DNA of 64,000 bases from an uncultured Nitrospiraceae bacterium (GCA_964393845.1 CAYMUX010000001.1:17556-81555), one strand, 5' to 3'. Positions 883-36,227 are shown, counted from the stretch's first letter. Numbers and translations: made by a program. The notes: a model not told the origin generated them from the sequence alone.

Positions 883-1057
883 TACGAATAATACACAAAA
901 AGCAAATCGGGATTATGATTGCTGGCTGCATTGGATTCCCACGTACAGATGTAACTTAAATTGTGTATATTGTTTTAGTAATCCCATAAAAAAAAGCTCC
1001 GAAATCTCCAGAATAGATACTTTTGCCATAACAAAAGCCCTCAATGAAACCAATAAA

Positions 1058-4483: not shown

Positions 4484-4492
4484 ATACTCTGA

Positions 4493-5209
4493 ATGGGGAA
4501 TAACGGCAGATCAAAAGACCCCGGGCTTAGCCGGGAAATATTTGTAACCGGAGAATATATTAAACACTTTAAACCGGAGGACAAACGGAACCCTTTTTCT
4601 AAAATTTATAAGCAGAAAAAAGAGGACACGATAAATCTCATTAACGGGTCTGAAGGTTCCAGGACTATTCTCGATATCGGCGGTGGAATGGGACGGCTCT
4701 CGCTGGATCTGGCCAGGTCGGACAGGAACGATGTTGTTCTCGTTGATATTTCAACGGACATGTTAAAGCTTGCAATAGAGCGTGCAGACAATTTGAATAA
4801 AATAAAATTAGTAAACTCTGACGCCCACTATCTCCCCTTTAAGGACAAGACGTTTGACTATGTGGTGGGGCTGGATCTGCTCTGTCATCTAAAGAGGCCT
4901 GAGTTGGCGCTGGCTGATTTTCATCGCGTCCTTAAAGACCAGGGAAGATTAATTATGGATTCTACAAACAGCAATCCCTTATGGACAATATTTTATCCCA
5001 GATATCTGGGGAAGAATCCCCTAACCTGGCTGAAGACAATAAAATTTCAGGGGGTATTGCCGGGGTGGGAGAAAATAGTCAGACATTATCCCAGAGATAA
5101 ATTTTTTTCTCTTTTAGAAAAGATGGATTTTGAGATAATGAAGAACTTGAATTACGGACCCAAAATATGCCCCAAGTGGCATCTGGCAGTGTCGAGGAAG
5201 GCAGGGTAA
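4493..5209 (+). CDS. Class I SAM-dependent methyltransferase
   Basis: ILDIGGGMGRL motif I, followed by VVLVDIS and DYVVGLDLLCHL motifs. Confidence 0.75.
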   Translation: MGNNGRSKDPGLSREIFVTGEYIKHFKPEDKRNPFSKIYKQKKEDTINLINGSEGSRTILDIGGGMGRLSLDLARSDRNDVVLVDISTDMLKLAIERADNLNKIKLVNSDAHYLPFKDKTFDYVVGLDLLCHLKRPELALADFHRVLKDQGRLIMDSTNSNPLWTIFYPRYLGKNPLTWLKTIKFQGVLPGWEKIVRHYPRDKFFSLLEKMDFEIMKNLNYGPKICPKWHLAVSRKAG

Positions 5210-6669
5210 TGAAGATCCTTTTATTAGATCCGCCGGGCAAGAATAAGGGGCTGAATACGGGCCTGGGTTATTTATCCGCTGTATTGAAGGACGACCATGA
5301 AGTCAGGGTGCTTGACCTGAATAACATTGATATCGGAATCTGCGGCGACCCAAATCCTGAACTGCCGGTCAAGAGTTTGGAAGAAAGGGTCATCCGTGCT
5401 GTGGAAGAATTTAGCCCTGACCTTTTTGGTATATCAGTAAAGACGTTTACAGCTGATATTGCAAGGCATATGTTTGATCTTGTAAAGGCTAAGCGGCAGA
5501 AAGTCATGACAATTGCAGGAGGCCCGCATATTACCCTGGACGGACTGAATTTTATTAAGGAAAGCAAAATTGATTTTGCTGTCCAGGGAGAAGGGGAATT
5601 TACAATAGTTGAGTTATGCAGAGCCATAAAAGAAAAAAGTGATTTAGGAAATATAAAGGGACTTATCTACTGGAAAAATGGAGAGGTAGCACAAAATCCC
5701 GAAAGCAGCAAAATAGATGATCTGGACGGCCTTCCTTTTCCATGTTACGACAACTTCAGTTCTGTTATTGATAATGGCGGACGTTTACCGGAATATCCTA
5801 TCCTGACAAGCAGAGGCTGTCCTTATAAGTGTACATACTGTTCCATGCCCAGGATTATGGGTAACAGGTGGCGTTATCGGTCGCCGGAAAACGTTGTTAA
5901 AGAACTTCAGCAGACAAAAGAGAAATACAAAAATACATGCTTCGCAGTTGTTGATGATAATTTCACCCTGAATTTAAAAAGGGTTGATAAGGTCTGTGAC
6001 CTTCTTATTTCAGAACGGCTTAATCTTGCATGGAACTGTCAGAATGGAATCCGCGCAGACAGGATTCATGAAGATTTGGCTGACAAAATGAAGCAGTCAG
6101 GATGCAGATATGTATGGATAGGCATTGAGAATGCTGACGAAGAAGTTTTTAATGCAATTAATAAAGGTGAAAAATTAGAAGACATAAAAACAGGAATCAA
6201 GCATCTTCAAAAGGCCGGAATCCGGGTCGGCGGCTTCTTTATTACAGGTTTGCCGTACAGTTCCAGAGAGGCGGATCTAAAGTCGGCCGATTTTGTCAGG
6301 GAAAATGGAATTGATGCATGGTGGTTTAATTTCATCCCCTATCCGCATACAGAAGCCTGGGACTGGGTACAGACAAATGGGAAAATACTTCGTTCTATCC
6401 AGGGAGCGCTCCAATACGGTTCAAACGATATTGATCCGGTTTTTGAGACAGATAATTATCCGAGAGATTCGAGGATAAAGACTTATAATGAAATACACAT
6501 CAGGTTGGGATATTTTGACAGGCTGGCCGATCCATCTTTAAGACAGTGCGACATGTGGTCAAGAGTATTTAAAAAAGTGCGTCCTTACGGTTTAAATGCA
6601 ACGGTTTCTCTTCTCATGTTTATATTGAAGTACAACATCAGATTGGCATTAAAAAAAATTCGCAAGTAA
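5209..6669 (+). CDS. Cobalamin (B12)-binding domain radical SAM enzyme
   Basis: N-terminal Rossmann-like B12-binding region (MKILLLDPP ... GISVKT ... IAGGPH) followed by SRGCPYKCTYCS (CxxxCxxC). Start set at MKIL, which overlaps the upstream stop (TAATG). Confidence 0.8.
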   Translation: MKILLLDPPGKNKGLNTGLGYLSAVLKDDHEVRVLDLNNIDIGICGDPNPELPVKSLEERVIRAVEEFSPDLFGISVKTFTADIARHMFDLVKAKRQKVMTIAGGPHITLDGLNFIKESKIDFAVQGEGEFTIVELCRAIKEKSDLGNIKGLIYWKNGEVAQNPESSKIDDLDGLPFPCYDNFSSVIDNGGRLPEYPILTSRGCPYKCTYCSMPRIMGNRWRYRSPENVVKELQQTKEKYKNTCFAVVDDNFTLNLKRVDKVCDLLISERLNLAWNCQNGIRADRIHEDLADKMKQSGCRYVWIGIENADEEVFNAINKGEKLEDIKTGIKHLQKAGIRVGGFFITGLPYSSREADLKSADFVRENGIDAWWFNFIPYPHTEAWDWVQTNGKILRSIQGALQYGSNDIDPVFETDNYPRDSRIKTYNEIHIRLGYFDRLADPSLRQCDMWSRVFKKVRPYGLNATVSLLMFILKYNIRLALKKIRK

Positions 6670-6706
6670 CCTGCGTAATTTAAGATTAGTCGGAATTCAT
6701 GGTCGA

Positions 6707-7309
6707 GTGTCAGGCTTTAATAGATTAAACAGAATGAATGTTTCTCAGATTGATCTCTTATCCAGTCCGGCAGTTAAGCATAAGTGGTTTTCTCAATTTA
6801 TGATACGAAAAGACAGATGGGAAGTCTTCTCCGGGACATGGGAATTAAAGTCATCCGATAGACTCATATATCTCAAAGAACCGGAAGTTGAAACCGGTGA
6901 AAACATAGCCGTGATAGGTTCACCCGAATGGAATAATTTAACTTTGCAGGTAAGGTTCAGCATACTGACAGATAGTATTAAGCCCCCGGAGGGCGGAGTA
7001 ATCATTTATGTTCTATTTAGAAATATAAGGAATTATTATTCTTATCATTTCTGTCTCTTCAAGAAGAAAGTAGAGTTGATAAAAAGATTCAGAGGTGTAT
7101 GGAGCACCTTAGCAGAACAGGACTATGATTTTGAATCCGGGAAGGATTATCGGGTCAGCATTGACGCTGATTCCGGAATTCACAGATTTCAAATAAACGG
7201 AACAAACCGGATGGAAATTCATGACGGTGATATTTTAAAGGGTTTTGTAGGGATAGGGATAAAATATTGTGACGCCGAGTTCAGAGAGGTTTCAGTTGAG
7301 CCACGGTAG
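6707..7309 (+). CDS. Hypothetical cytoplasmic protein, possible LamG/DUF1080-like jelly-roll
   Basis: 200-aa ORF with no signal peptide. Weak pattern resemblance to concanavalin-like DUF1080 folds. Confidence 0.35.
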   Translation: MSGFNRLNRMNVSQIDLLSSPAVKHKWFSQFMIRKDRWEVFSGTWELKSSDRLIYLKEPEVETGENIAVIGSPEWNNLTLQVRFSILTDSIKPPEGGVIIYVLFRNIRNYYSYHFCLFKKKVELIKRFRGVWSTLAEQDYDFESGKDYRVSIDADSGIHRFQINGTNRMEIHDGDILKGFVGIGIKYCDAEFREVSVEPR

Positions 7310-8735
7310 AAGAATATTAAGAAATACGACTTTTTTGACCGTAGGCGACAAATTCGGTTACCTCCTGCAGTTCGTGTTCTTCCTCTATTTTGCGCGTAAG
7401 TTCGGCGTAGTCCCAACAGGCGAATATTCTTTTGCTTTCTCCTTTACATATGTTTTCTCCGTGTTTGCTGATCTGGGCATTTCAATTTATCTTGTTCGTG
7501 AAATCGCCCGCGACCATTCAGACAGCAGAGAATTGTTTTATGATTGTCTCGTATTAAGGGCAATTTCAATTGTTATAATCTTTTTACTTGCCGCGGCTGT
7601 TCTTATATTGTTCTTTCAGGACAGCTCTATTCAGAAGTTAAGGGTCATAGGATATTTGGGTGTTTACTGGGTTTTTTTCAGTATAGCTGATGTATTTCTT
7701 GCAGAGTTAAACGGCTATCAAAGAATGGGCCGCGTTGCCCTTCTGGGAATATGGTTGAAATTATTAAACACGGCAGCAGGTCTGCTTTTGATATACCTCG
7801 GATTTAATTATGATGCGGTAATGATTGTATTTCCGATAAGCAGTCTGATATATCTCTTTACATGTATTCTGGTATCGTCTTATACATTAGGGCCTGTGCG
7901 GATAAAGTTCAGGAATCCGGCGTATTACAAAAATCTTTTGGGCGAATTAATGCCGTTTTTTTCGGCTCTGATACTGGTCGAAGTATTGTTTTGGCAGGAC
8001 GTATTGTTTTTGGGAATTATTAAAGATGACCAGGCGGTAGGTATATACTCATCTGGAACAAAGATAGCCGGCTTTATTCTTGGTGTGTCTTCATTTATAT
8101 ATATAGCAATCCTGCCCGTCTTATCCAAATTGTTCATAGAGTCCAAAGAAAAGCTGATAGAGACCTCGGAAACAATACTTCGATACCTTGTCCTGTTAAG
8201 TTTGCCGGTAGCCGTTGGATTGGCTGCAATCGCGGATAAAGTTGTCAGCCTCTTTTATTCCGATCTGTTTAAGGACGCGGGCATAGTTCTGAAGATTACA
8301 TGTTGGACAATAGTCGCAGGATTTATCCAGGCCATTTTCTCCGCTCTTTTAACTGCAATAGACCGGCAAAAGGAAAAAGTGGTTTTTATTGTGATTAACT
8401 TTGTAATCAGCACGATACTAAATATTATCTTCATATATTATTTTAATTTTATAGGAGCAGCTATTGTCAAAGTGCTTACTGCGGTAATTGGCTTGATTTC
8501 CTTTGTCTACCTTGTATCCAGGTATTTTATACTGCTTCCGATTATGAGACCATTTGTTAAGCCGTCAATTGCATGCATTGTCATGGCGGTTTTTATCCAT
8601 TTATTTTACAGTTGGGAATTAATATATTTGATACCTGTCTCAGGGTGCATCTACATTGTCTCATTGCTGTTATTTGGCGGTATTACAAAAGATGAAATCA
8701 GGATAATGAAGAGCTTTCTGCCCGGGACAACATAA
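7269..8735 (+). CDS. Wzx-like oligosaccharide flippase (MOP superfamily, polysaccharide biosynthesis protein)
   Basis: About 12 predicted TM helices. N-terminus LRNTTFLTVGDKFGYLLQFVFFLYFARKFG is typical of Polysacc_synt family proteins. GTG start is uncertain. Confidence 0.7.
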   Translation: MTPSSERFQLSHGRRILRNTTFLTVGDKFGYLLQFVFFLYFARKFGVVPTGEYSFAFSFTYVFSVFADLGISIYLVREIARDHSDSRELFYDCLVLRAISIVIIFLLAAAVLILFFQDSSIQKLRVIGYLGVYWVFFSIADVFLAELNGYQRMGRVALLGIWLKLLNTAAGLLLIYLGFNYDAVMIVFPISSLIYLFTCILVSSYTLGPVRIKFRNPAYYKNLLGELMPFFSALILVEVLFWQDVLFLGIIKDDQAVGIYSSGTKIAGFILGVSSFIYIAILPVLSKLFIESKEKLIETSETILRYLVLLSLPVAVGLAAIADKVVSLFYSDLFKDAGIVLKITCWTIVAGFIQAIFSALLTAIDRQKEKVVFIVINFVISTILNIIFIYYFNFIGAAIVKVLTAVIGLISFVYLVSRYFILLPIMRPFVKPSIACIVMAVFIHLFYSWELIYLIPVSGCIYIVSLLLFGGITKDEIRIMKSFLPGTT

Positions 8736-8743
8736 TAATATAG

Positions 8744-10429
8744 TTGCAGGGAAATAAATATTTGATTGATCTTATGAGCGTCGGGAATAAAAAAGTATCT
8801 ATCAGCCTTAAGGAGGCGCTATTTGTTCTATGTATAATTTTATTCGCCGGTATAATCCGTATCCCTTCCCTGACACAGCCTATAGGCCCCGATCAGGGTA
8901 TTATGTCTGTAATCGGCAAGGGCCTCCTGAATGGAGAACTCCCTTATAGAGATAACTGGGAGATGGCTTCACCGGCAATATTTTTCACCTATGCATTGAT
9001 GTTCAAGACATTCGGATTGTCGATGGCCGCAATCCCTGTTACTGATACATTAGTCTCCATGTTGACAACCTTATTGGTGTTTATGCTGGGCAGAACGGTT
9101 TGGGACAATAAGGTCGGCGGTGTCAGCGCGCTGCTCTATGCATTCTTTTCCAATGGCATTCGTATAGGCATGCATTCCGCAGGTGACACTGCATTTGGAA
9201 CATTCTGGTATATTGCTCAGAGGGAGTCTTTTATGGTGCCGCTTATAGCGGGGAGTTTTTATCTCATATATAAATCGGGAAACGGCTCAAGGAATCCATT
9301 GAAATTGATCCTGGCAGGCTTATTGTCCGGGCTGGCCTTTGTATATAAGTTTCCTGCCTTGCTGTTTTTTATGTGCATTATTTTGTACGTGAATGTGAGT
9401 TTTCTGTTCAATAAAGAACGGAAAACAGTTAAGCAGTTAGCAGGTGATAATTTGTCCCTGATATCGGGTTTTATCCTTGCCATTGTCCCCTTTGTTTTAT
9501 TTTTTGCTTCCAAGGGCGCGTTGAAAGATATGACTGATGTAATTTTCAAATACGTTTCCTCTGTCTACGGCCAGGTAGAGCATGATTATCTCGTAATGGC
9601 CAGAATCGGGTTTGAACATACCGTTTTTCTGGCTAAAGAAAATTTTGTGATCTGGTTATTGTGTTTCGCCTCATCAATTTATATTCTTTTAAACGACCGC
9701 AAAAAAGAAAATTTATTGATTGTGCTATGGGCTGCTGCATCTCTATTGTATGTGATCAGTCACAGAGAATTTTTCGGGTATCATTATCTGATTATTTTCC
9801 CCTCATTCTCGATATTGTCGGGCTACGGGATAGCAAAGATATTCGGGCAGGACTTCAATCTTCGCGGTTTCTTCTCAGGACAAACAGGCAAGGCAATGGT
9901 CGGTTTTATTTTAGCCGCCAACCTGCTTTTTTTTGCCACAATCAATCATATGCATTACACAAAGTTTTTCTATTATGTAACCGGTAAGATCTCTCAGGAT
10001 GAGTATTATCAATTCTTCAGTGCTTATCCTGATCACGACTATTCCTTTCCCGCTGATTATAAAGTGGCTCAATATATTAAAAGCCAAACGAAGCCTGACG
10101 ACATGATATATTCCCTCGGCGGAATTGAAAGCGTTATATACTTCCTGACCGACAGAAAATCACCTTCAAGATTCATCTTTTCATGGATTATATTGCAATA
10201 TGCTCACAGCAAGGTAGATATGGCCGCAGAATACAGGAAAGAGCTTCTGGCTGATTTAAAGGCAAAAACCCCAAAGTATATTATAACCGTCCGATCATTA
10301 GAGACCTTTAAGGAGTACGTTGATATTTATGCATTCATAAATAATAATTACCTCCTTGAAAAGACTTTCCCTGACGACAGGTTTGTATATGTTTACAGAC
10401 AACAGGGTGTAAGCAGGATTTCATCTTAA
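8744..10429 (+). CDS. GT-C fold membrane glycosyltransferase (ArnT/PMT, GT39/GT83-like)
   Basis: Polytopic N-terminal domain with a PYRDNWE loop motif. Large TM core plus C-terminal periplasmic domain. TTG start; an alternative ATG lies at 8774. Confidence 0.6.
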   Translation: MQGNKYLIDLMSVGNKKVSISLKEALFVLCIILFAGIIRIPSLTQPIGPDQGIMSVIGKGLLNGELPYRDNWEMASPAIFFTYALMFKTFGLSMAAIPVTDTLVSMLTTLLVFMLGRTVWDNKVGGVSALLYAFFSNGIRIGMHSAGDTAFGTFWYIAQRESFMVPLIAGSFYLIYKSGNGSRNPLKLILAGLLSGLAFVYKFPALLFFMCIILYVNVSFLFNKERKTVKQLAGDNLSLISGFILAIVPFVLFFASKGALKDMTDVIFKYVSSVYGQVEHDYLVMARIGFEHTVFLAKENFVIWLLCFASSIYILLNDRKKENLLIVLWAAASLLYVISHREFFGYHYLIIFPSFSILSGYGIAKIFGQDFNLRGFFSGQTGKAMVGFILAANLLFFATINHMHYTKFFYYVTGKISQDEYYQFFSAYPDHDYSFPADYKVAQYIKSQTKPDDMIYSLGGIESVIYFLTDRKSPSRFIFSWIILQYAHSKVDMAAEYRKELLADLKAKTPKYIITVRSLETFKEYVDIYAFINNNYLLEKTFPDDRFVYVYRQQGVSRISS

Positions 10430-10437
10430 AATATTAA

Positions 10438-12108
10438 ATGAACTCGCAACTCCAGATAAACATAACCGGTGAAAAATTCAGCGCCCGTGAGATATCTATT
10501 CTGTTTTTTATCCTGCTCTCGGTGTTTGTATTAAGATTTCCTTCTTTTCTCCAGCCATGGGGGGGAGACCAGGCGGTATATGGATATATTGCAAAGGAGA
10601 TGCTGGACGGCAAAGTGCCGTACCGGGATATGTATTCGAGTACGGGTTATGGAGTGTTTTTTGCTTATGCCGTGCTGTTAAAAATCTTCGGCAATAATAT
10701 GCTGGCCCTTCATTTAGGTGATTTTATAGCGTCAATTTTGACCGTTATAATTGTTTATTATCTGACCAGGCTGTTATATGGAAAGGAGTGCGCAATTATC
10801 GCAGGGATTATCGCGGCTTTATTCGGAAGCGGCCGGGCCTTCAGCGGTCTCTATGAGATGAAGGGCGCATGGGGAACATACTGGCAGTTGGCCCAGAGAG
10901 AAGTCTTTATGACACCGCTTATTGCAGCCGGTATCCTTCTTTCCTTACTGGCTGACCGGAACAGAAAATGGCATCTCTATTTCTGGGCCGGAGTATCTAT
11001 TGGTTTGGCGGTTGTTTTGAAAATTACTGCCGTTATTATGTTGCCGATTCTCATCTTATATATTGTCATGAGTGAATTCTTCAGCCATGACGGAGGTGGT
11101 TTCAGGTCTTCTCTGTATAAAACAGCAGGCTTGATTTTCGGGGCATTAGTAATTCAACTTCCGTTTCTTTATTACTTCTGGATACATGACAGCCTCTATA
11201 TAATGTACAAGGCTGTCTTTGTTCATACTTCGGTATATGCCAAGCTTTCCAGGGGATTGATGCTGGTCAATGCATTTGAAGGCAATACTTACGTAATGAG
11301 CGAGAACTTGGTGATGTGGGTATTTTCACTGGGTGCAATGTTGCATTTGCTGGCGCATGAAAGGAAGAGGGAAACCTTCCTTGTTTTGGCCTGGACTGTA
11401 GGCATACTGATAATGATATGGGGACAGGGGAAATTTTTTGGTTATCACTTTCTTTTAATTCTCGGACCATTGTCTGTATTAACGGGATATGGCATAAAGC
11501 AGTTTCTGAAGATGGAATCCAGCTGGAAGGACTCAATTATTGCCGCTCGTAATAATATGATTGCTATTGTGCTATGGGTCTTTTTAGCCGGCAGCCTTGT
11601 GGTTTTTTTAGGCAGCAATTATGACTACTATCGCTGGAATATCCAATACCTTACAGGGAAGATAACCAGGGACCAATATTATGAGGTATTTAATGAATTT
11701 CCACTGCATCTGTATTCTTTTCGTTCCGATTATGATGTAGTAAATTATCTGAAAATGCATGCTCAGCCGGGCGATTCCCTCCGTACGATTAATTGCGGAG
11801 GAGATACGATCATTCACTATCTTTCCGGGCTTCGCTCGGCAACAAGATTTACATCTACCTGGTACCTGTTTAATAAGGGGTTATATAATAATACTCTTTC
11901 GGACCAGTTGAGGGACGAATTTATCGAAGGGATAAGTAAGGAAAAGCCGGGATATATCCTGCTGGTTTACTATAATATGGAAGAATTTATGAGAGAATAT
12001 AACAGAGATGATTATGGTGATGTTGCAAGATTGATGGATTACATTAAAGACAATTATGTGGTGGAAAAGGCATTCCGGGACAGGCGCACATTGTATAGAA
12101 GGATATGA
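10438..12108 (+). CDS. GT-C fold membrane glycosyltransferase, tandem paralog of the preceding gene
   Basis: Collinear similarity to 8744-10429 (PYRD loop, YWQLAQRE/FMTPLIA block, FFGYH block). Confidence 0.6.
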   Translation: MNSQLQINITGEKFSAREISILFFILLSVFVLRFPSFLQPWGGDQAVYGYIAKEMLDGKVPYRDMYSSTGYGVFFAYAVLLKIFGNNMLALHLGDFIASILTVIIVYYLTRLLYGKECAIIAGIIAALFGSGRAFSGLYEMKGAWGTYWQLAQREVFMTPLIAAGILLSLLADRNRKWHLYFWAGVSIGLAVVLKITAVIMLPILILYIVMSEFFSHDGGGFRSSLYKTAGLIFGALVIQLPFLYYFWIHDSLYIMYKAVFVHTSVYAKLSRGLMLVNAFEGNTYVMSENLVMWVFSLGAMLHLLAHERKRETFLVLAWTVGILIMIWGQGKFFGYHFLLILGPLSVLTGYGIKQFLKMESSWKDSIIAARNNMIAIVLWVFLAGSLVVFLGSNYDYYRWNIQYLTGKITRDQYYEVFNEFPLHLYSFRSDYDVVNYLKMHAQPGDSLRTINCGGDTIIHYLSGLRSATRFTSTWYLFNKGLYNNTLSDQLRDEFIEGISKEKPGYILLVYYNMEEFMREYNRDDYGDVARLMDYIKDNYVVEKAFRDRRTLYRRI

Positions 12109-12761: not shown

Positions 12762-12815
12762 GATATAAATGTTGCCGGGAAATACCGAAAAATATAAAAG
12801 AGCAGGCATAGGATC

Positions 12816-15133: not shown

Positions 15134-16743
15134 TGGATAAGATATTAATTGTAGGCTGCGGCGCAAGCGCCGTCCATTTTGCCTTGACTGTCCTGCAAAA
15201 GGGATATGAAGTTACCATGCTTGATGTGGGATACGAGAGGCCTGAGGTGATGTATCCGGGGAAGAGCATTGATGAGCTTAAGGAATGTCTGAAAGACCCT
15301 GTTGACTACTTTCTGGGCGGAAACTTTGAGTCTTTTATCCCTCCGGACTACGGAGCCGAGTATTACGGCTTTCCGCCGAATAAGAGTTATGTCTTACAAA
15401 AACCTCAACAGTTCAGTTTCACTTCTTCGGGTTTTGCGCCACTTTTCTCTTTTGCCCAGGGTGGACTTGCAGAGGTCTGGACCGGTGGTATTTATCCTCT
15501 TAATGACAGCGAACTTTCCGATTTCCCTCTTTCCTTTGGAGAAATGCTCCCCTATTACAATAAGGTTGCAGATCGTGTCGGCATAAACGGGGTAGAGGAC
15601 GATATGAGCATGTTTTTCCCCTGGCATGAAAATCTGATGGAACCGCTTAATACAGATAAGCATTCCAGCCTTCTCCTGTCAAGCTATAATCAGAAAAAAG
15701 CTTGTTTAAATAACACGCTTGGTTTTTACATGGGCCGTTCCAGGGTTGCGACACTGAGCCGTGACAAAGGAGAAAGAAAGGCGTGTTCATACAGCGGACG
15801 CTGTTTATGGGGATGCCCGATCGGGGCTTTATATACTCCTTCACTTACCTTGCAGGAGTGTAAGAAATACGGCACATTCAAATATGTTTCCGGTATGTAT
15901 GTCAGACATTTCAACTACGATAAACAAAACAATATCACCTCTGTGACGGCAGAGTCCGTCAAAGATTCCACGTTCCATGAGTTCCCCGTAGATAAACTGG
16001 TGTTAGGGGCCGGCACTGCCTCTTCATCAAAGATATTCCTGGAATCCCTTTTCAGAAAGACAGGAGAGATTTTTAAACTTAAGGGCCTCATGGACAACCG
16101 TCAGATTCTGGTCCCGTTTCTCAATCTGAAAATGATAGGCAAAGACTGTGATCGTGAAAGCTACCAATATCATCAGGTGGCCTTCGGCATCAAAACGGAA
16201 AATCCAAAAGAGCATATTCACGGACAGGTCACGACCTTAAAATCAGCATTGATACATCCGATCATACAGAGCTTCCCATTGGATTTAAAGACCTCAATCT
16301 TTACCTTCAGCATTATTCATTCAGCGTTAGGAGTAATAAACCTGAACTTTCATGACGTCCGCAGGGATGAGAACTATATATCTTTGAGTATTGATAAGTA
16401 CCCGCATCGTCCTGAATTGTTTATAAATTACAGGCCGGTCTCAGGAGAAAAGGCCTTAATGGATAATGCGATGAAAATAGTGGGAAAGGCATTCCTGAAA
16501 TTAGGCTGTGTAGTTGCGACAAAAATGGCTCATATACGTCCGATGGGCGCAAGCGTTCATTACGCAGGCACAATACCCATGTCGGAGAAGAAAGACACAT
16601 TTACAACTTCAAGGCATTGTCAGAGCCATGATTTCAATAATCTCTATTTCGTTGATGGAACGACCTTTCCTTTTTTGCCGGCCAAACAGTTGACCTTTAC
16701 GATGATGGCAAATGCCGTCCGTGTAGCTGACAAAGCGTTTTGA
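15133..16743 (+). CDS. GMC-family FAD-dependent oxidoreductase
   Basis: IVGCGASAVHFA FAD-binding fingerprint. C-terminal GMC block FVDGTTFP ... ANAVRVADKA. Confidence 0.7.
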   Translation: MDKILIVGCGASAVHFALTVLQKGYEVTMLDVGYERPEVMYPGKSIDELKECLKDPVDYFLGGNFESFIPPDYGAEYYGFPPNKSYVLQKPQQFSFTSSGFAPLFSFAQGGLAEVWTGGIYPLNDSELSDFPLSFGEMLPYYNKVADRVGINGVEDDMSMFFPWHENLMEPLNTDKHSSLLLSSYNQKKACLNNTLGFYMGRSRVATLSRDKGERKACSYSGRCLWGCPIGALYTPSLTLQECKKYGTFKYVSGMYVRHFNYDKQNNITSVTAESVKDSTFHEFPVDKLVLGAGTASSSKIFLESLFRKTGEIFKLKGLMDNRQILVPFLNLKMIGKDCDRESYQYHQVAFGIKTENPKEHIHGQVTTLKSALIHPIIQSFPLDLKTSIFTFSIIHSALGVINLNFHDVRRDENYISLSIDKYPHRPELFINYRPVSGEKALMDNAMKIVGKAFLKLGCVVATKMAHIRPMGASVHYAGTIPMSEKKDTFTTSRHCQSHDFNNLYFVDGTTFPFLPAKQLTFTMMANAVRVADKAF

Positions 16744-16756
16744 TTAAAACGCTCTT

Positions 16757-18391
16757 TTGATAATGAATAAGACTGAAGATAATTTGTCATTAAATCCATA
16801 TTCTTTTCATTTGACGCGAGAAGTATGGGGATTAATACTTATAGTGGCATGTTATCTTCTGGCAGGTATGATCGCTTTAAAATTCCATGCAATCCTCTCA
16901 GATTATGAAAGGGATGCAACCGAAATGCTTTTTGATGCAAAGAGAATATTGGCCGGAGAGGGTTATAACAGTGATTTCTGGCCGTTTGGGTACATGGCAA
17001 TGATTGCTTTTACAAAGCTCATCACCGACATAGATTTTTTTACATCTGCAAAATTAATTGCACTTTTTTCCGGAGCCGGAGTCTTAATTCTTACATATTT
17101 AATCGGCAAACAAGTATTTTCGGAAAAGATTGCTGTTTTGGCGGTGTTGATATTGGCAAGTAATCACTTTTTCTTTTCACATTCCTTTTTAGTTGAAATG
17201 GATATGCCGTTTACGTTGCTATTATTATTATCAATATACTTTCTTATAAAAGGAAATGAATGGAGAAATTTCCTCTTGTGCGGGGCATTTGCGGGAATAT
17301 CCTATATGGTGAAATACGGGGCATATGCTCTTTTCCCGGTAGTAGCAGTAGTTGCATTAATTAATATTACAGATAAAGGGATTGTTGATTCTTTGAAAAA
17401 AGTGATGATTTTCTTTGCAGCATTCTTTATCTTTTCATCGCCGTGGCTTATAAATAATACAATAAAAAACGGCAGCCCTTTTTATAGTAAACACTATGTT
17501 AATATCGCATGGGGAATGAATAGACCCCAGCTGATGCCTGACAAATATTGGGTGGAATATTTCAGACTTAATGAAGAGTATTCCTCTATGAAGGATGTCG
17601 TCGCTGACACAAAAAAATTTGTGGGAAATTGGTTAGGCAATATCAGGGGGCTTCCTATAAATATTTTCAACATACTATCTATTACGGGTATTTTTCTGCC
17701 GCTTGCTTTTCTTATGGCTTTTAAAGCTTTGGACAGACGAAGGTTAATTTTAATTTTGCTGACTCTGAGCTATGTAAGCCTGGTAACGATGGCCTATACC
17801 TGGAACAGATATCTGATACCATTAATGCCGGTACTATGTATATTTATTGCATTTTGCATTCATGAAATTTTACCGGAGTCTTTCAGCTTGAAAAAAATAA
17901 TTGAAAGACTTTCTTTTAATATCCCTTTCAGGATAATTATTGTTGCGATGCTGATCTTGTTCTCTGTTATAAAGTCCTTTGGCGTGGTGACTGAATTTAT
18001 GCGGAAGGAGCATATATACGAATGGAAAGTTGCGGGAGAATGGCTAAAGCCTAAATTAAAAAATGACGACTGGATCATGGTGCCTAAACCACAGGCAGCC
18101 TGGTTTGCCGGAACAGATAAATTTGTTAAATATCCTGCTGATGATTCTTTACCGCTTGAAGATGTGGTTAAGAAGCGTGAGCAAAACACTTTTTTCTTTT
18201 GGCAGGAAACTTTGACTACTAAAATAATAACGGATGTTGATTACCTTATTTATGATGAACGGTGGTGGAAATGGTTTCTGCCGTCCCTCATGTCAGAAAA
18301 TGGGCCGATAGTACCGGAGAATTTTTTACCTATATTTTCCACAAAAGGTGCAAAGACTCACATAATTATTTATAAAATTATCCATGAGTAA
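16757..18391 (+). CDS. GT-C fold membrane glycosyltransferase (ArnT/PMT-like)
   Basis: Polytopic membrane protein with an early loop (DAKRILAGEGYNSDFWPFGY) like PMT_2/ArnT enzymes. About 11 TM helices plus C-terminal soluble domain. Confidence 0.55.
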   Translation: MIMNKTEDNLSLNPYSFHLTREVWGLILIVACYLLAGMIALKFHAILSDYERDATEMLFDAKRILAGEGYNSDFWPFGYMAMIAFTKLITDIDFFTSAKLIALFSGAGVLILTYLIGKQVFSEKIAVLAVLILASNHFFFSHSFLVEMDMPFTLLLLLSIYFLIKGNEWRNFLLCGAFAGISYMVKYGAYALFPVVAVVALINITDKGIVDSLKKVMIFFAAFFIFSSPWLINNTIKNGSPFYSKHYVNIAWGMNRPQLMPDKYWVEYFRLNEEYSSMKDVVADTKKFVGNWLGNIRGLPINIFNILSITGIFLPLAFLMAFKALDRRRLILILLTLSYVSLVTMAYTWNRYLIPLMPVLCIFIAFCIHEILPESFSLKKIIERLSFNIPFRIIIVAMLILFSVIKSFGVVTEFMRKEHIYEWKVAGEWLKPKLKNDDWIMVPKPQAAWFAGTDKFVKYPADDSLPLEDVVKKREQNTFFFWQETLTTKIITDVDYLIYDERWWKWFLPSLMSENGPIVPENFLPIFSTKGAKTHIIIYKIIHE

Positions 18392-18437
18392 AATTTGACT
18401 GCTGACATATAACAATAAACATTAAGGAAAAAATATA

Positions 18438-20381
18438 ATGGGAATCAGCGATTTAAGAGAAAGAAGAATAATATTCTTGCTGTCAGCAGGGGTAATTACC
18501 GGTTCAATAATCGGGCTTATTACATCTTTTTATTTCATCCTGTCAAATCGGTATATCCAATATGAAATGTATAGAATAGCGGCTTTTGTTTTTCGAGAAA
18601 ATATGAATTACAGTATTCTCTTTACTCTTGTCGGATTTGCGGGATTGTATATGCTCTGGTTTCTGCTCGTAGAAAAAATAAAATTTAATAAAATAAAAGT
18701 TGAATATTTCTATAAATTGGTAATCGTTATTTCCTTTATATGTATAGTCACTGATTTATTACTTAGGGTATTCGTAGATATTCCTTTACTATACGGGCTA
18801 AAAGATTTATTAAGAATATCGCATCGGTTTCTGCTGGGGCCAATGACGTTCCAGAAATTATTAGATACGGTAAACTCATTTCTTACAGGTTACATTATTT
18901 TAATTTGCATTGGCGCTATTGCCGTTCCCATTATATATCGCTTGCTCAAGAGGTTACCAACGGAAAAATTATCAAACTGTGCACAAAAGAAATATTTTGC
19001 GCATTCAGCTCTTGTTTTAGGTGCTTTTATATTAGTTTTAAACTTGAGTATTGTTATCGATAGAAGGATAAATACTCAGGATGGACCAAATGTTATTTTT
19101 ATTGTTGTTGACGCCCTGCGGGCGGATCATATCAGTAATTATGGATACGACAGATTAACCAGCCCGAATATTGATAGCCTGATCAACGATGGAATAGTGT
19201 TTGAAAATGCTATTAGCCAAGGCAACATGACAACGCTTTCAATGCCTTCCATGTTTACGGGACTATATACATCGGATCACGGAGCTCATATGTTGCGAAA
19301 AATAGAAACCAGATTTGCTCCTGTAAGTGATAGATTCACTACTATCGCAGAAGTTTTTAATAATGCCGGTTATATTACACAGGCGGTATCATGTCAGCCG
19401 TGGGTTTCTCCTGAAACTGGCTATGGCCAGGGATTTGACAGCTTTGAAATAGTCAGCGATTCAAGTGATAACTTATCTGATCAGATAACTGTTGAAAGAG
19501 CGCTTGAATGGATAAATAAGAAATCAGGTAAGAAATTTTTTCTTTTCCTTAATCTAATGGGTCCACATACACCATATAATCCGCCGCCGCCATATGATAC
19601 CCTGTATTTCTCAGAATATAAAAATAAATCAAAATTGATTTCGGATTTGAATAATTTCTATTTGCAGCAGAATCACGGAGAATATTACAAATTATTAATG
19701 GATACTAAAGGGGAGAATATATCCAAAGACGAGTTGAATCAATTAATGTCTTTATATGACGGGAAAATAACCTACACCGACTATCAAATCGGCCGTTTGA
19801 TTGATAAGTTGAAAGCGTTGAATATTTATGACAATACCATGATAGTTTTGACTGCGGACCATGGAGAGGCCTTCCTTGAGCATGGTATGTTTTTACACGG
19901 CAGAAGTCTTTATAATGAAGAACTTCATGTTCCGCTTATTATGACTTATCCGAATAAATTACCAAAGGGAAGGAAAGTAAAAGATATCGTGGAACTTGTT
20001 GATATATTACCTACAATCGCAAGTGTCACAGGCATCCCTGTATCCGGAATAAAAATGCGTGGAGTATCTTTATATCCTATGACTGATAATTCTGATCGTT
20101 TTGTTTATAGCGAAGGGAGCGGTCGCGTGAAATACAGGACTGATAAATGGAGCCTTATTTGTGACAGCAGCGATTGGATTTGTGAGCTCTATGATTTGGA
20201 AAATGACCGCAGCGAATTAAATAACATAATAGAAAGCAATCATAATATTGCTTCTGAGATGAAAAAAGGACTTTTTAAAGTAGTTGATAATAAAATGTAT
20301 CCTTCGGTCAGCACTGTCAAGGCCAGGATAATCCCCGAGGAAACAGAGAAGACTTTAAAATCATTGGGCTATTTGCGATAG
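18438..20381 (+). CDS. Membrane-anchored sulfatase-fold (alkaline phosphatase superfamily) transferase with LtaS/EptA/OpgB-like architecture and a C-terminal LKSLGYLR tail
   Basis: About 5 N-terminal TM helices. PNVIFIVVDALRADH metal-binding block. TSPNIDSL. TADHGEAF ... HG. Nucleophile region TTLSMPSM (no C/S-x-P-x-R). Confidence 0.75.
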   Translation: MGISDLRERRIIFLLSAGVITGSIIGLITSFYFILSNRYIQYEMYRIAAFVFRENMNYSILFTLVGFAGLYMLWFLLVEKIKFNKIKVEYFYKLVIVISFICIVTDLLLRVFVDIPLLYGLKDLLRISHRFLLGPMTFQKLLDTVNSFLTGYIILICIGAIAVPIIYRLLKRLPTEKLSNCAQKKYFAHSALVLGAFILVLNLSIVIDRRINTQDGPNVIFIVVDALRADHISNYGYDRLTSPNIDSLINDGIVFENAISQGNMTTLSMPSMFTGLYTSDHGAHMLRKIETRFAPVSDRFTTIAEVFNNAGYITQAVSCQPWVSPETGYGQGFDSFEIVSDSSDNLSDQITVERALEWINKKSGKKFFLFLNLMGPHTPYNPPPPYDTLYFSEYKNKSKLISDLNNFYLQQNHGEYYKLLMDTKGENISKDELNQLMSLYDGKITYTDYQIGRLIDKLKALNIYDNTMIVLTADHGEAFLEHGMFLHGRSLYNEELHVPLIMTYPNKLPKGRKVKDIVELVDILPTIASVTGIPVSGIKMRGVSLYPMTDNSDRFVYSEGSGRVKYRTDKWSLICDSSDWICELYDLENDRSELNNIIESNHNIASEMKKGLFKVVDNKMYPSVSTVKARIIPEETEKTLKSLGYLR

Positions 20382-20385
20382 GATA

Positions 20386-22251
20386 TTGACATTGAAGAAA
20401 AAAATACCTGTCATTCTATTCCTGATAATCCTCTTTGCCCTTGCTCTGAGATTATACGGAATTAATTTTGATGTCCCCCATCCGGACGATTATATAACTG
20501 TTCAGGGGGCCATGTATTTTGGACCGGCGCACATTCCTCTCAACAGGTTTGGACTTTATGGTCTCTATGTATGGCCGGCATTTACCATGGTCTATATTCA
20601 ATCGGTCCTTTTTTCGCTGTATTTCCTTGTTGGAATGATATTGGGCATATTTCCGGATATAGAGAGTTTTAGAAATCTTTATCTTTCAGATCCATCAAGC
20701 TTTCATCTGATAGGCCGTATAATGAGTGTTTTATTTGGAATAAGTACTGTCTGGGTTTTATATTATCTGGGAAAAAGGTTATATAATCATAATGTCGGCT
20801 TGATGGCCGCACTTTTTCTTTCTGCAAGTTTTATTCACAGCTTCCATTCGCAATATATAAGGCCTGATATTCCTTCGACGTTTTTTTCTGTATTAGCGAT
20901 TTTGTATTGTCTCCTGATCCTGGAAAAAGGAGATTTGAAATTATATGTAATGGCAGGTGTTATGACAGGACTTGCTACAGCGACAAAATTTACATCAGCT
21001 GTTCTTATACTTCCGGTAATTGCAGCACATATTATGGCTGAAGGAAAAGAATTATCAAGCGATAAACATAAGACGAAGGCCAAAGAGCTGCTTCCTGTTA
21101 TCTTAATAATTTCCGGCGCTGTTATGTCGGCATTAAGCATGATGTTCATATTTAATTTAATTAGCCTGGATGGGGTACGCTTTTCTCCTCATGAAGAACT
21201 CAATCAAAAGGTCATTGTTTCCCTGAGGCTCTTAATAAAGGCCCTTGCCGTGCCGGGATTCTTTTTAATTATCGCGGGTGTTTTATGCAAGTGTTCAACT
21301 TCTGTAAGAAATATTACAGTTAACCTGTTGAGTAACAGAAAACTATTATTTAGTATGGCTGCCGCCTTTTTGAGTTTTATGGTTTTTGATCCTATTTTTT
21401 TCCTTGATATCAAAAATCAAATCCGGATATTTCTTACTGACGCTAATTACGGAGGCAAAAATGTCTATTTTATCGGCATAGAAAACCGGGGGTTTTTAGA
21501 TAATATCTGGTGGTATATTAAAGGGCCTATTAACTGGGGATCAGGGCTTCATATTGAGATCATGGCCGGACTTGGTCTATTGATTGTTCTAATCAGGAAA
21601 AGAAGAGAGGATTTGCTTGTCCTTTTGTTCCCGATGATCTTTCTTCTTGTTCTCGGGGCTGGTAAATATAAGTGGGAACGTTATGCAGTAACATTCATGC
21701 CTTTCGTAGCGTTATACGCCGCTTATTTTCTTTACTCTCTTACGGAGAAGATTTTTACATATAGAATGCAAGAGAACCAGAAGGCTGTTGTAACGGCATT
21801 CTTATCAATTATTCTTGTTTTGCCGATGACATACGATATCCTGCGCTATGATTACCTTCTTATCCATAAAGACACGAGGGTGACGGCCAAAGAGTGGGTG
21901 GAAAATAATATTGTTTACGGAAGCAAAATCGGGCAGGATGCATATACATGCGATCTTTCAGATGAAATCTACAAGATCACAAGAAAATATTCTTTAAGTG
22001 ATGTGCCTCTTAATTATTACATTGACAATAACTTTGAGTACTTGATAGTAAGTGATACACAATACAAGAGGTATATGGCGAACGCTTTGAAATATCCTGA
22101 AAACGTTAAGTTTTACACTTCACTTTTTTCGGAAGGAAAACTGATAAAAGAGATAGAGCCGGGAAATGATCTGTGGCCGAAACCCGATGAAAGGTTTTTA
22201 AAGTATCATATGCATGTTTCGCCTACAATAAAAATATATAAAATTAAATAA
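20386..22251 (+). CDS. GT-C-like polytopic membrane glycosyltransferase (PMT_2/DUF2723-like)
   Basis: N-terminal TM helix then a YGINFDVPHPDD loop. Many TM helices plus a C-terminal soluble domain. TTG start. Confidence 0.5.
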   Translation: MTLKKKIPVILFLIILFALALRLYGINFDVPHPDDYITVQGAMYFGPAHIPLNRFGLYGLYVWPAFTMVYIQSVLFSLYFLVGMILGIFPDIESFRNLYLSDPSSFHLIGRIMSVLFGISTVWVLYYLGKRLYNHNVGLMAALFLSASFIHSFHSQYIRPDIPSTFFSVLAILYCLLILEKGDLKLYVMAGVMTGLATATKFTSAVLILPVIAAHIMAEGKELSSDKHKTKAKELLPVILIISGAVMSALSMMFIFNLISLDGVRFSPHEELNQKVIVSLRLLIKALAVPGFFLIIAGVLCKCSTSVRNITVNLLSNRKLLFSMAAAFLSFMVFDPIFFLDIKNQIRIFLTDANYGGKNVYFIGIENRGFLDNIWWYIKGPINWGSGLHIEIMAGLGLLIVLIRKRREDLLVLLFPMIFLLVLGAGKYKWERYAVTFMPFVALYAAYFLYSLTEKIFTYRMQENQKAVVTAFLSIILVLPMTYDILRYDYLLIHKDTRVTAKEWVENNIVYGSKIGQDAYTCDLSDEIYKITRKYSLSDVPLNYYIDNNFEYLIVSDTQYKRYMANALKYPENVKFYTSLFSEGKLIKEIEPGNDLWPKPDERFLKYHMHVSPTIKIYKIK

Positions 22252-22269
22252 AAGTATAAGGAGACGACA

Positions 22270-23685
22270 ATGAAGTGTATATTAGCAATGCCGGCGTGGG
22301 ACCTTTCAGATTCCCACACCAAAGCCATGAGAAGTTCTGTTGCCGGAATATGGCCTCCGCCCGGACTGATGTCCATTGCAGCGGTCTTGAGAGAGGCGGG
22401 ACACGATGTTACTATTCTTGACGGTACCCTCCTTTCAGCAGAAGAGATATTGAAAGGCATCGACGATATTAAACCTGGGTTTCTGGGGATATCCTGTGTT
22501 TCTCTTATGTGGCCGAAGGCGAGGGACCTTGCGAAAGATGTGAAAGAAAAGCATCCTGATGTGTATATTGCGGTCGGCGGACCAGGCCCTTCTTATTTCC
22601 AGGAAAAGTGTTTTGAAGAATCCGGTGACATTGACGCGGTTTGCCTTAGAGAGGGAGAATATACCGCCAGGGAAATCGTGAAAAGACTGGAAAAGGGTGA
22701 AGGCATGGAGGGCTGCGAGGGGACGATAATAAGAACTAAAGAAGGGATCATACGCAATCCTGAAAGGCCCCTGATAGAGAATCTTGACGAGCTTCCACCT
22801 TATGCCCTTGATCTGCTTGATATGCATAAATATCGTCCGCCCGTGGGACATTACAGCAGGCTCCCTATCGCCCAGATGATGAGCGCGAGAGGGTGCCATC
22901 TCAAGTGCATATACTGCTACAGGGTAAACGGCAAGACCATACGGCTTAAATCAGCCAAAAACGTAGTGGATGAGATGGAGCACTATATCAAAAGATTCGG
23001 AGTAAGAGAGATAAAATTCTGGGATGATCTTTTCACATATGACAAACAAAGGGTCCTGGATATCTGCGATGAAATTAAAAAAAGAGGCCTTGATGTTACA
23101 TGGTTCTGTGCTTCGCGTGTGGACACAATCGATGAGATTATGCTGAAAAATATGGCTGAAGCCGGCTGCTGGTGTATTCTTTACGGCATTGAAACAGGGG
23201 TGCCCAAAAACCAGAAAACAATAAAGAAGAACCTGGACTTGTCGAGAGCGCAGGAGACTATACGGCTGACTCACAAATACGGGATAAAAACATTTGCCAC
23301 GTTTATACTGGGGATTCCCGGCGAAACTTACGAAGAGGGATTACAGACCATTGAATTCGCGAAGAAACTCGATCCTTTTTACGCCGAGTTCTTTACATTC
23401 ACTCCGTTCCCCGGATCGCCCGTATATGATGAAATCAGCAAACACGGAACGCTCAGCTCTAATCTTTCCGACATCGGCATGCACAGGATGGGCTTTGTCC
23501 CCTATTCCATGACCAGACAGCAGCTTGCCAAACTCTGCACGATGTCATACAGAAGCGTATACATGAGGCCGAAACATGTTTTGCGCATGCTTCTCAGCAT
23601 CAGGTCATGGCTGGAGCTGAAGAACATGTTCAGGGGGGCCGTGGGTATTTCAAACATGCTTTTCGGAAGACATACCTCTGAATAA
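22270..23685 (+). CDS. Cobalamin (B12)-binding domain radical SAM enzyme (second copy)
   Basis: B12-binding N-terminal region (AVLREAGHDVTILDG ... GISCVS ... VGGPG) then SARGCHLKCIYC (CxxxCxxC). Confidence 0.8.
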   Translation: MKCILAMPAWDLSDSHTKAMRSSVAGIWPPPGLMSIAAVLREAGHDVTILDGTLLSAEEILKGIDDIKPGFLGISCVSLMWPKARDLAKDVKEKHPDVYIAVGGPGPSYFQEKCFEESGDIDAVCLREGEYTAREIVKRLEKGEGMEGCEGTIIRTKEGIIRNPERPLIENLDELPPYALDLLDMHKYRPPVGHYSRLPIAQMMSARGCHLKCIYCYRVNGKTIRLKSAKNVVDEMEHYIKRFGVREIKFWDDLFTYDKQRVLDICDEIKKRGLDVTWFCASRVDTIDEIMLKNMAEAGCWCILYGIETGVPKNQKTIKKNLDLSRAQETIRLTHKYGIKTFATFILGIPGETYEEGLQTIEFAKKLDPFYAEFFTFTPFPGSPVYDEISKHGTLSSNLSDIGMHRMGFVPYSMTRQQLAKLCTMSYRSVYMRPKHVLRMLLSIRSWLELKNMFRGAVGISNMLFGRHTSE

Positions 23686-29892: not shown

Positions 29893-29948
29893 GAATTAAT
29901 ACAAAGTCCTTTATTATTCATTATCATATCAACAACGGTTTAATAGCA

Positions 29949-33925: not shown

Positions 33926-34054
33926 TATATGGATTAATATCATGCCCCTGATAAACAAAGACACATTATTCTCCATCTCATAATTGCATATGTCCCACTG
34001 TTTGAAATAAGAGAGGCTGAAGATACCTGCTTAATTCGGTAATATCGAGTCAAT

Positions 34055-36172: not shown

Positions 36173-36227
36173 CATCATACGATCAGCAGTTTTTCTTTAT
36201 GATCGTAAATCGAAAGCAGTGAAATAG

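Follow-up and report, generated by a model that had tools for sequence, protein, structure and literature searches.

Two putative cobalamin-dependent radical SAM enzymes in conserved glycan-assembly modules of an uncultured Nitrospiraceae bacterium

A stretch of 64,000 nucleotides from an uncultured Nitrospiraceae bacterium (GCA_964393845.1, CAYMUX010000001.1:17556-81555), here called the window, encodes two proteins that combine a B12-binding domain with a radical S-adenosylmethionine (SAM) core: rSAM1 (5209-6669) and rSAM2 (22270-23685). We propose that both carry out radical chemistry on sugar intermediates as fixed parts of glycan-assembly modules, with rSAM1 probably acting as a C-methylating enzyme, and we put the probability of this proposal at about 0.55. 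The two enzymes represent two distinct, uncharacterised families of the known cobalamin radical SAM superfamily. Their domain architecture, fold, motif retention, family distinctness, synteny and gene fusions are established in this analysis; cobalamin use, substrate identity and reaction are what we infer for both.

A preliminary reading of the sequence alone (the sequence-only reading) had paired a B12-binding domain with a CxxxCxxC radical SAM core in both genes, the architecture of class B (cobalamin-type) enzymes. Pfam and AlphaFold bear this out. Both domains exceed the Pfam cutoffs (32.1 bits for PF02310, 29.5 bits for PF04055) in both proteins, with PF02310 at 59 bits (residues 29-150 of a 500-residue open reading frame, ORF) and PF04055 at 89 bits in rSAM1, and 86 and 77.5 bits respectively in rSAM2. 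The cluster-binding motifs are C204-PYK-C208-TY-C211 in rSAM1 and C209-HLK-C213-IY-C216 in rSAM2, and their cysteines are invariant in 54 rSAM1-family and 62 rSAM2-family homologues. The 500-residue ORF (P0242) is the product of a longer start at 5167 chosen by the ORF lister, which is at odds with the homologue consensus; starting at 5209 (MKILLLDPPG) gives an N-terminus that agrees with that of 53 homologues, and this start overlaps the TAA of the upstream methyltransferase gene. A look-up by exact sequence gave no match for either enzyme, rSAM1 being recorded on its source contig with the longer start. AlphaFold models generated from the family alignments are confident (predicted local distance difference test, pLDDT, 94.2 and 93.3; predicted template modelling score, pTM, 0.90 and 0.91), and both show an N-terminal β-α Rossmann domain followed by a partial TIM barrel. 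Foldseek matches both models to the solved structures of TsrM, MgmA/QCMT, CysS, TokK, OxsB and AprD4. Neither protein has a transmembrane segment.

The B12-binding fold is therefore predicted in both enzymes, and the motifs within it are retained. The glycine-rich strand end reads AGGPH in rSAM1, as in TokK, and VGGPGP in rSAM2, while both carry the (G)EGE motif common to TokK, CysS and OxsB. These GGP and EGE positions are near-invariant across the 54 rSAM1-family and 62 rSAM2-family sequences. In a residue-level alignment AprD4 has instead YTSIRSP and PESIS at these places. Since both enzymes retain the motifs that AprD4 does not have, cobalamin binding by rSAM1 and rSAM2 is considered likely on sequence grounds.

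The two enzymes and the genes around them are listed below.

878-1867, + strand: small radical SAM gene, 329 residues, probable ATT start (Pfam PF04055, 37.7 bits)
1857-3302, + strand: glycoside hydrolase (GH) of the GH30/GH59 type with one N-terminal hydrophobic segment (Pfam; orthologue in L008)
3302-4483, + strand: glycosyltransferase family 4 (GT4) enzyme that opens the conserved rSAM1 module (orthologues at 56-91% identity in L008, L009 and L091/L092)
4493-5209, + strand: class I SAM methyltransferase, UbiE-like, directly upstream of rSAM1 (Pfam/NCBIfam)
5209-6669, + strand: rSAM1, B12-binding domain and radical SAM core, 486 residues (Pfam, AlphaFold)
6707-7309, + strand: β-sandwich protein of about 200 residues, like a family 66 carbohydrate-binding module (CBM66) or the GH59 lectin domain (profile match to levanase CBM)
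7269-8735, + strand: Wzx-type flippase (Pfam; kept in L008, L009, L010, L091 and L093)
8744-12108, + strand: two GT-C enzymes (PMT_2, ArnT-like) at 8744-10429 and 10438-12108 (orthologues in L003, L008, L009, L010 and L091)
12105-12761, + strand: class I methyltransferase (Pfam)
12816-13760, + strand: PgfS/ArnC-type polyprenyl-phosphate glycosyltransferase with two C-terminal transmembrane helices (Pfam/NCBIfam)
20386-22251, + strand: GT-C enzyme (PMT_2) that opens the conserved rSAM2 module (orthologues at 48-56% directly upstream of rSAM2 in L001-L004)
22270-23685, + strand: rSAM2, B12-binding domain and radical SAM core, 471 residues (Pfam, AlphaFold)
23696-24685, + strand: GT2 enzyme, MftF-like, with one C-terminal transmembrane segment (orthologue follows rSAM2 in L001-L004)
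24682-25455, + strand: GT2 enzyme of the DPM1-like polyprenyl/dolichyl-phosphate hexose transferase type (orthologue follows rSAM2 in L001-L004)
25482-26231, + strand: class I SAM methyltransferase (Pfam; no counterpart beside rSAM2 in L001-L005)

Related loci carry handles beginning with L; about seven independent loci give the context of rSAM1 and five that of rSAM2. In all long contigs examined, the tight rSAM1 family is found in the same kind of module, consisting of GT4, class I methyltransferase, rSAM1, the CBM-like protein of about 200 residues, Wzx and GT-C (49-91% identity). L008 (91%) is collinear with positions 1-16743 of the window. L009 (64%) and L091/L092 (55%) keep GT4, the UbiE-like methyltransferase and rSAM1, with Wzx and GT-C close by, and L093 (49%) keeps the methyltransferase, rSAM1, a small ORF and Wzx. 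In L010 (55%) the order differs, being methyltransferase, GT2, rSAM1, small protein, and in L094 (74%), the sole locus with rSAM1 from the metagenome scan, the small protein lies immediately downstream of rSAM1. The methyltransferase orthologues (48-90% identity) adjoin rSAM1 in L008, L009, L091/L092 and L093, so that the pairing of rSAM1 with the gene at 4493-5209 noticed earlier proves to be conserved, and the GT4 orthologues sit upstream of this pair in L008, L009 and L091/L092.

The protein encoded at 6707-7309 (P0247 on the source contig, 100% identical) has no Pfam family, signal peptide or transmembrane segment, and its homologues begin at the Met encoded at 6734. A profile of 14 members matches the carbohydrate-binding module of a Bacillus levanase over its full length (4B1M, 4AZZ, 4B1L; E 4e-6), a module which we take to be CBM66, and half of the family members weakly match the galactocerebrosidase lectin domain. 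The gene adjoins rSAM1 in L008, L009, L010 and L094, and we infer that 8 of the 14 homologues are on the same contigs as rSAM1 orthologues. On this basis the protein is predicted to be a dedicated partner of rSAM1. Two natural fusions are of interest: P0214 joins a relative of rSAM1 to this CBM-like module, and P0233 joins a GT2 domain to a relative of rSAM1. They make the tie between rSAM1 and carbohydrate far firmer than presence in the locus alone would.

Several further observations concern these loci. The hydrolase at 1857-3302 and the free domain at 6707-7309 together resemble a split galactocerebrosidase-type (GH59) enzyme, five genes apart, which hints at a glycolipid-like substrate. 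At 2449-3009 of L093, tblastn matches the CBM-like partner on the strand opposite to a called gene of 163 residues, and one of these readings must be wrong. The GT2 domain of P0233 was considered as an orthologue of a window GT2 and rejected: the match is weak (32% over 93 residues, to the product of 24682-25455), and no pairing can be made. In L091, three SPASM-type radical SAM genes (9602-13243 and 17426 onward) lie beside the orthologue, and L093 encodes a fusion of GT2 with radical SAM/SPASM at 4567-6798. Loci for glycans that are rich in radical SAM genes thus seem to be a recurring theme in uncultured anaerobes. In L003 a single protein fuses GT2 to a methyltransferase, the methyltransferase half being 46% identical to the product of 12105-12761. 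GT2-linked tailoring fusions are therefore found in three forms, with a methyltransferase (L003), with radical SAM/SPASM (L093) and with a relative of rSAM1 (P0233), and the L003 and L093 fusions point to a coupling of tailoring enzymes to GT2 steps in such loci.

In the rSAM2 module, GT-C, rSAM2 (74-82% identity), a GT2 of about 325 residues and a GT2 of about 256 residues occur in L001-L004 in the same order as in the window, and the neighbours are 48-68% identical to the window genes, the two GT2 enzymes (23696-25455) being 66-68% identical. The short GT2 resembles dolichyl/polyprenyl-phosphate hexose transferases in NCBIfam. In the more distant L005 (47%), GT2 and PMT_2 genes and more radical SAM genes are still adjacent. 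The methyltransferase at 25482-26231, which had been paired with rSAM2 in the same way as that beside rSAM1, has no counterpart next to the rSAM2 orthologues of L001-L005, and this second pairing is thus not conserved. Both neighbourhoods are also seen in uncultured members of Nitrospirota, Thermodesulfobacteriota, Chloroflexota and further groups, and orthologues of both enzymes appear to occur together in two relatives, on contigs of 71.5 kb (P0005, P0165) and 45 kb (P0002, P0177). It may be added that L005 encodes, at 10634-13266, a plain radical SAM protein and another of the B12 type.

The two enzymes are only distantly related to each other (27% identity) and belong to different families, and are thus not recent duplicates. 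The tight rSAM1 family comprises about 100 clusters at 55-91% identity, from metagenome bins of Nitrospirota, Thermodesulfobacteriota, Aminicenantes, Acidobacteriota and Chloroflexota, with weaker relatives in archaea. rSAM2 has few near relatives (69-95%), followed by more than 1000 at 40-50%. Neither enzyme meets the cutoff of any curated NCBIfam family. The top family for both is HpnJ (TIGR03471), at 160.8 and 210.4 bits against a cutoff of 577.6, followed by PhpK, BchE, ApyD and Sden_1168 in an order that differs between the two. BchE (TIGR02026) scores 131 and 174 bits against a cutoff of 481, and AprD4 (NF033070) 66.7 and 116.1 bits against 500. Membership of HpnJ, BchE, AprD4 and PhpK was therefore rejected, the scores all being under the curated cutoffs. 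In similarity networks HpnJ falls into one cluster with the methylases Fom3 and MoeK5 (PMC9204698), and the match to HpnJ can therefore not separate methylases from non-methylases. The kinship with Fom3 and GenK proposed in the sequence-only reading did not emerge, since no model of that type is among the best 25 families of NCBIfam, the only curated library scanned for this placement. Clustering of the enzymes with lipid or tetrapyrrole pathways finds no support either: the HpnJ and BchE scores are far under their cutoffs, and the close homologues lie in glycan contexts. The label 'anaerobic Mg-protoporphyrin cyclase' given to homologues by JGI reflects naming by similarity.

Some indication of the type of reaction comes from the cofactor pocket. 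In solved structures, two pocket positions correlate with radical methylation (PMC12931638). At the position of TokK W76, under the corrin, rSAM1 has F80 (F or Y in 50 of 54 family members) and rSAM2 has L79 (L, M or F in 52 of 62). The second position, that of TokK W215 between cobalamin and cluster, is two residues past the third cluster cysteine. TokK and CysS have W there, MgmA has V, TsrM has E and OxsB has R; rSAM1 has M213 (M, V or L in 53 of 54). By this correlate from a few structures, rSAM1 is hydrophobic at both positions and rSAM2 at the first only. The chance that rSAM1 is a radical C-methyltransferase is thus estimated from sequence at roughly one in two. For rSAM2, which is methylase-like at one position only, methylation, rearrangement and dehydration are all candidates; its assignment is ambiguous from sequence, and it may be a non-methylase. 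The C-methylated sugars suggested from the sequence alone are a plausible prediction for rSAM1 and one of several candidates for rSAM2.

On the basis of these observations, we propose the following mechanism. Both enzymes would be soluble and cytoplasmic. The [4Fe-4S] cluster bound by CxxxCxxC would cleave SAM reductively to give a 5'-deoxyadenosyl radical, which would remove a hydrogen from a sugar intermediate at an unactivated carbon. The intermediate is most likely a sugar or oligosaccharide linked to a lipid carrier at the cytoplasmic face, or else a sugar about to join the carrier. In rSAM1, the substrate radical would most likely be quenched by the methyl group of methylcobalamin, giving a C-methyl (branched) sugar, with the CBM66-like protein holding the carbohydrate and the adjacent class I methyltransferase adding a conventional O- or N-methyl group. 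From its place between GT-C and a DPM1-like GT2, rSAM2 probably modifies a sugar donor of the polyprenyl-phosphate type. Wzx, or else a protein like a flippase, would next flip the modified unit, and the adjacent GT-C enzymes would transfer it.

A number of points weigh against this proposal. Neither family has a characterised member, and the best curated families include the non-methylases HpnJ and BchE. A scan with Rfam found no cobalamin riboswitch or any other RNA family in the window, and there is no cobalamin gene among the Pfam hits of the window. The pocket correlates derive from only about seven structures and are weak evidence; the second position in the rSAM2 family is K, R or Q in all 62 members, and the solved structure that rSAM2 matches best is that of AprD4, a sugar dehydratase that works without cobalamin. 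Among the 53 distant rSAM1 relatives listed (27-41% identity), glycosyltransferase genes lie nearby in only 20; the contig scan listed distant relatives only, and so says little about the tight family. Relatives of rSAM2 at 42-43% identity are found outside glycan loci, and this difference in context limits the glycan argument to the close rSAM2 clade.

A first alternative is a different reaction on the same kind of substrate. One or both enzymes, rSAM2 especially, could catalyse a non-methylating sugar reaction: ring contraction of the HpnJ/OxsB type to a cyclitol or carbasugar, 1,2-diol dehydration of the AprD4 type to a deoxy sugar, oxidation or epimerisation. HpnJ is the top curated family for both (161 and 210 bits), AprD4 comes first among solved structures for rSAM2, both in sequence (E 2.4e-27) and in structure (template modelling score 0.74/0.77), the conserved basic residue of rSAM2 two past the third cluster cysteine is shared with OxsB, and the locus contains a pair of GT2 and YdjC genes of the HpnI/HpnK type at 40558-42360. 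However, the scores are far under the cutoffs (578 for HpnJ, 500 for AprD4), and the HpnJ match has no power to separate reaction types because of its clustering with Fom3 and MoeK5 (PMC9204698). The YdjC gene lies 18 kb off and is missing from the conserved neighbours of the rSAM2 orthologues, no AprD3-like reductase is conserved there, and rSAM1 agrees with the radical methylases at both pocket positions. We consider this alternative less probable than the proposal above.

Two further alternatives concern the N-terminal domain and the substrate. AprD4 and ArsL have related Rossmann domains yet bind no cobalamin, and cobalamin-free proteins such as AprD4 fall within the similarity network of B12 radical SAM enzymes (PMC12931638). 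The N-terminal domains of rSAM1 and rSAM2 could likewise be vestigial, and the enzymes ordinary radical SAM proteins; AprD4 is among the top structural matches of both models, and a Pfam match to the B12-binding family is no proof of binding. This would be at odds with the near-invariant GG(P) and EGE motifs, absent from AprD4, and with PF02310 scores well over the cutoff of 32 bits (59 and 86). It is also at odds with the profile alignments: that of the rSAM2 family is significant against AprD4 over the radical SAM core only, as is the alignment of rSAM1 with AprD4, while against OxsB, TokK and CysS it spans the B12 domain. The single rSAM2 sequence does align with AprD4 from residue 27, within the N-terminal domain. 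We consider a vestigial domain improbable. The same holds for action on a lipid part, be it the polyprenyl carrier or an anchor lipid in the membrane, for which HpnP and HpnR, which methylate hopanoids, and the enzymes of ladderane or tetraether lipids are precedents. HpnR scores 74 and 106 bits and a ladderane-type lipid enzyme 103 and 100 bits in NCBIfam, the locus has a flavoprotein like phytoene desaturase and HpnE (42397-43710) and many membrane enzymes, and an amine-oxidase gene lies near rSAM2 relatives in L005 and L007. Against this, the partner of rSAM1 is CBM-like and is fused to a relative of it in P0214, P0233 joins rSAM1 to a glycosyltransferase, neither enzyme has a membrane segment, and Pfam scans of the window found no squalene/hopene cyclase, fatty-acid synthase or isoprenoid synthase.

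The reading that we prefer, radical chemistry on sugars, can be taken further, into a speculation that is rather unlikely to hold in full. Cobalamin/radical SAM chemistry may be a part of primary envelope glycan assembly, rewriting sugars on their lipid carrier before export and yielding C-branched or carbocyclic sugars that GT-C enzymes install in the periplasm. rSAM1 and its private CBM would then be a new two-component system for C-H functionalisation of sugars, widespread in uncultured anaerobes.

The remainder of the window fits the description of a polysaccharide locus given from the sequence alone, in the sense that Pfam and NCBIfam scans identify it as a glycoconjugate-assembly locus, and an unusually large one. 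All ORFs of at least 100 residues with family support are on the + strand, in a single unbroken run of about 46 genes; the GC content is close to 0.40, and cumulative GC skew climbs steadily. There are two Wzx-type flippases and seven GT-C (PMT_2, ArnT-like) membrane glycosyltransferases, with GT-C genes on the + strand at 8744-12108 (two), 16757-18391, 20386-22251, 29949-32039 and 52811-54448. Four GT2 enzymes are of the PgfS/ArnC polyprenyl-phosphate type (12816, 40558, 50865 and 51802), each with two C-terminal transmembrane helices, and additional GT2 and GT4 enzymes are present. The emphasis of the locus is on donors linked to lipid carriers and on periplasmic transfer. Seven GT-C and four PgfS/ArnC-type enzymes in one co-directional string of 64 kb make an exceptionally dense set for periplasmic glycosylation. 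Class I methyltransferases number three (4493-5209, 12105-12761 and 25482-26231). Other genes encode six membrane-anchored proteins of the 'Sulfatase' family, two alkaline-phosphatase-family proteins, a pair formed by a short-chain dehydrogenase/reductase (SDR) and a GMC oxidoreductase, a YdjC deacetylase, polysaccharide deacetylases, a FemAB-like protein and a carbamoyltransferase. Among the window genes, no Pfam or NCBIfam match to the hopanoid genes shc, hpnH and hpnG was found, only generic look-alikes (GT2, YdjC, amine oxidase and LPG_synthase_TM), and Pfam scans found no bacteriochlorophyll genes in the window.

Some groups of genes deserve mention in their own right. Positions 12816-18391 encode in a row a polyprenyl-phosphate-type GT2, an SDR of 458 residues with a C-terminal hydrophobic segment, a GMC-type flavoprotein and a GT-C, an order kept in L003 and L008. 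An oxidase and a reductase beside a lipid-sugar synthase recall epimerisation of a lipid-linked sugar of the DprE1/DprE2 type. The six 'Sulfatase' paralogues (18438-20381 and 27736-40526; 629-720 residues), an unusual number for one locus, are five of them nearly in tandem, and consist of about five N-terminal transmembrane helices and a Sulfatase/alkaline-phosphatase domain. None has the formylglycine motif C/SxPxR, and the aligned nucleophile position is Thr, which marks them out as LtaS/EptA-like transferases of phospho groups rather than sulfatases. At 40558-45716 the order is GT2 (PgfS/ArnC-like), YdjC deacetylase, flavin amine oxidase, a protein with six transmembrane helices and no family, and a flippase-like LPG_synthase_TM protein, resembling an ArnC/ArnD-style or HpnI/HpnK-style route toward a lipid-linked amino sugar. 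The amine oxidase (42397-43710) is PRK07233/HpnE-like at 490 bits, exceeding the cutoff, and an amine-oxidase gene is, as noted, also seen near rSAM2 relatives in L005 and L007. Finally, the genes at 54445-56340 encode a DUF3473-containing polysaccharide deacetylase and, after it, a FemAB-like acyltransferase. Such a pair is typical of exopolysaccharide (EPS) loci associated with PEP-CTERM/exosortase, and the part rich in GT-C may therefore border on a separate EPS system that occupies the 3' third of the window.

The third, small radical SAM gene noted in the sequence-only reading exists, but at 878-1867 and not at the start of the window: for the ORF at 1-882, Pfam and NCBIfam give no signature of a radical SAM protein. 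The frame of 1058-1867 is open upstream, where it encodes RCNLNCVYC, and this upstream stretch contains no ATG, GTG or TTG. A GGGAGG box lies 5 nucleotides ahead of an ATT at 878, which overlaps the upstream TAG (ATTAG), and the product from this start passes the Radical_SAM cutoff of Pfam (37.7 bits). Both ATT and Shine-Dalgarno box are kept in the 90%-identical relative L008 (5590-5720). The sequence therefore points to translational coupling and to ATT as a rare start codon, and the gene is cut short by gene callers, to 256 residues in L008. The product has CxxxCxxC, a GGGEP motif and a Cys-rich C-terminus, and scores 54 bits against the STM4011 family (cutoff 200). A function as anaerobic sulfatase-maturing enzyme was rejected, since the six 'Sulfatase' paralogues have Thr and no C/SxPxR. 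Pfam scans of the ORFs of at least 100 residues found no radical SAM match beyond these three genes.

What had been called rare in EPS loci is rare in the characterised literature but not in nature, where both families recur in glycan modules of many uncultured anaerobes. A literature search for B12 radical SAM enzymes in connection with O-antigen, polysaccharides or polyprenyl gave no paper of relevance. To our knowledge, the characterised cobalamin radical SAM enzymes that act on sugars all come from antibiotic or hopanoid side-chain pathways, and we know of none from the assembly of envelope polysaccharides or glycoconjugates. The superfamily is huge and mostly uncharacterised, and new subfamilies in a new pathway context are therefore to be expected, so that the finding is of moderate surprise. 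The conservation of these families with fixed partners in several phyla points to C-methyl, deoxy or carbocyclic modifications of sugars. The predicted modifications are invisible to standard annotation, and could affect surface properties, recognition by phages and the immune system, and the way in which carbohydrate biomarkers from the environment are interpreted. Firmest among the new points are the CBM-like protein as a dedicated partner of rSAM1 and the fusions; the natural fusions are concrete handles for the choice of substrates in vitro, and the substrate question is experimentally tractable.

Among known systems, HpnJ (TIGR03471) has the same two-domain architecture, and its proposed substrate is a lipid-linked amino sugar, bacteriohopanetetrol glucosamine, which resembles the lipid-linked sugar proposed here. 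Its neighbours are hpn genes, whereas those of rSAM1 and rSAM2 are GT4, GT2, GT-C and Wzx, with no squalene-hopene cyclase or HpnH in the window. The apramycin 1,2-diol dehydratase AprD4 (PDB 6FD2), which acts on a sugar ring, is the nearest solved structure to rSAM2 (Foldseek E 1.5e-26, template modelling score 0.74-0.77) and is in the top three structural matches of rSAM1; unlike AprD4, which binds no cobalamin and has neither GGP nor EGE, both enzymes keep the two motifs. The C-methyltransferases TokK and CysS (7KDY, 9N1B) are the best sequence matches of the rSAM1 B12 domain. TokK shares AGGPH with rSAM1, and its pocket residues W76 and W215 are, like F80 and M213, aromatic or hydrophobic. 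Identity to TokK and CysS over the models is 16-19%, and these enzymes carry big additional domains at the C-terminus; their substrates are carbapenem or small pantetheinylated molecules rather than glycans. The ring-contraction enzyme OxsB (5UL4) has a B12 domain that aligns with that of rSAM2 and shares EGEYT; it has extra N-terminal and helix-bundle domains, a nucleotide substrate and about 17% identity to rSAM2. GenK, GenD1, Fms7 and MoeK5, compared here by description only, set the precedent for C-methylation of sugar carbons by cobalamin radical SAM enzymes. MoeK5 acts on a lipid-linked sugar in moenomycin biosynthesis. A review lists it simply as the moenomycin A C-methylase (PMC9204698). 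All four belong to actinomycete antibiotic pathways, whereas rSAM1 and rSAM2 are found, together with Wzx and GT-C, in envelope-glycan loci of uncultured anaerobes.

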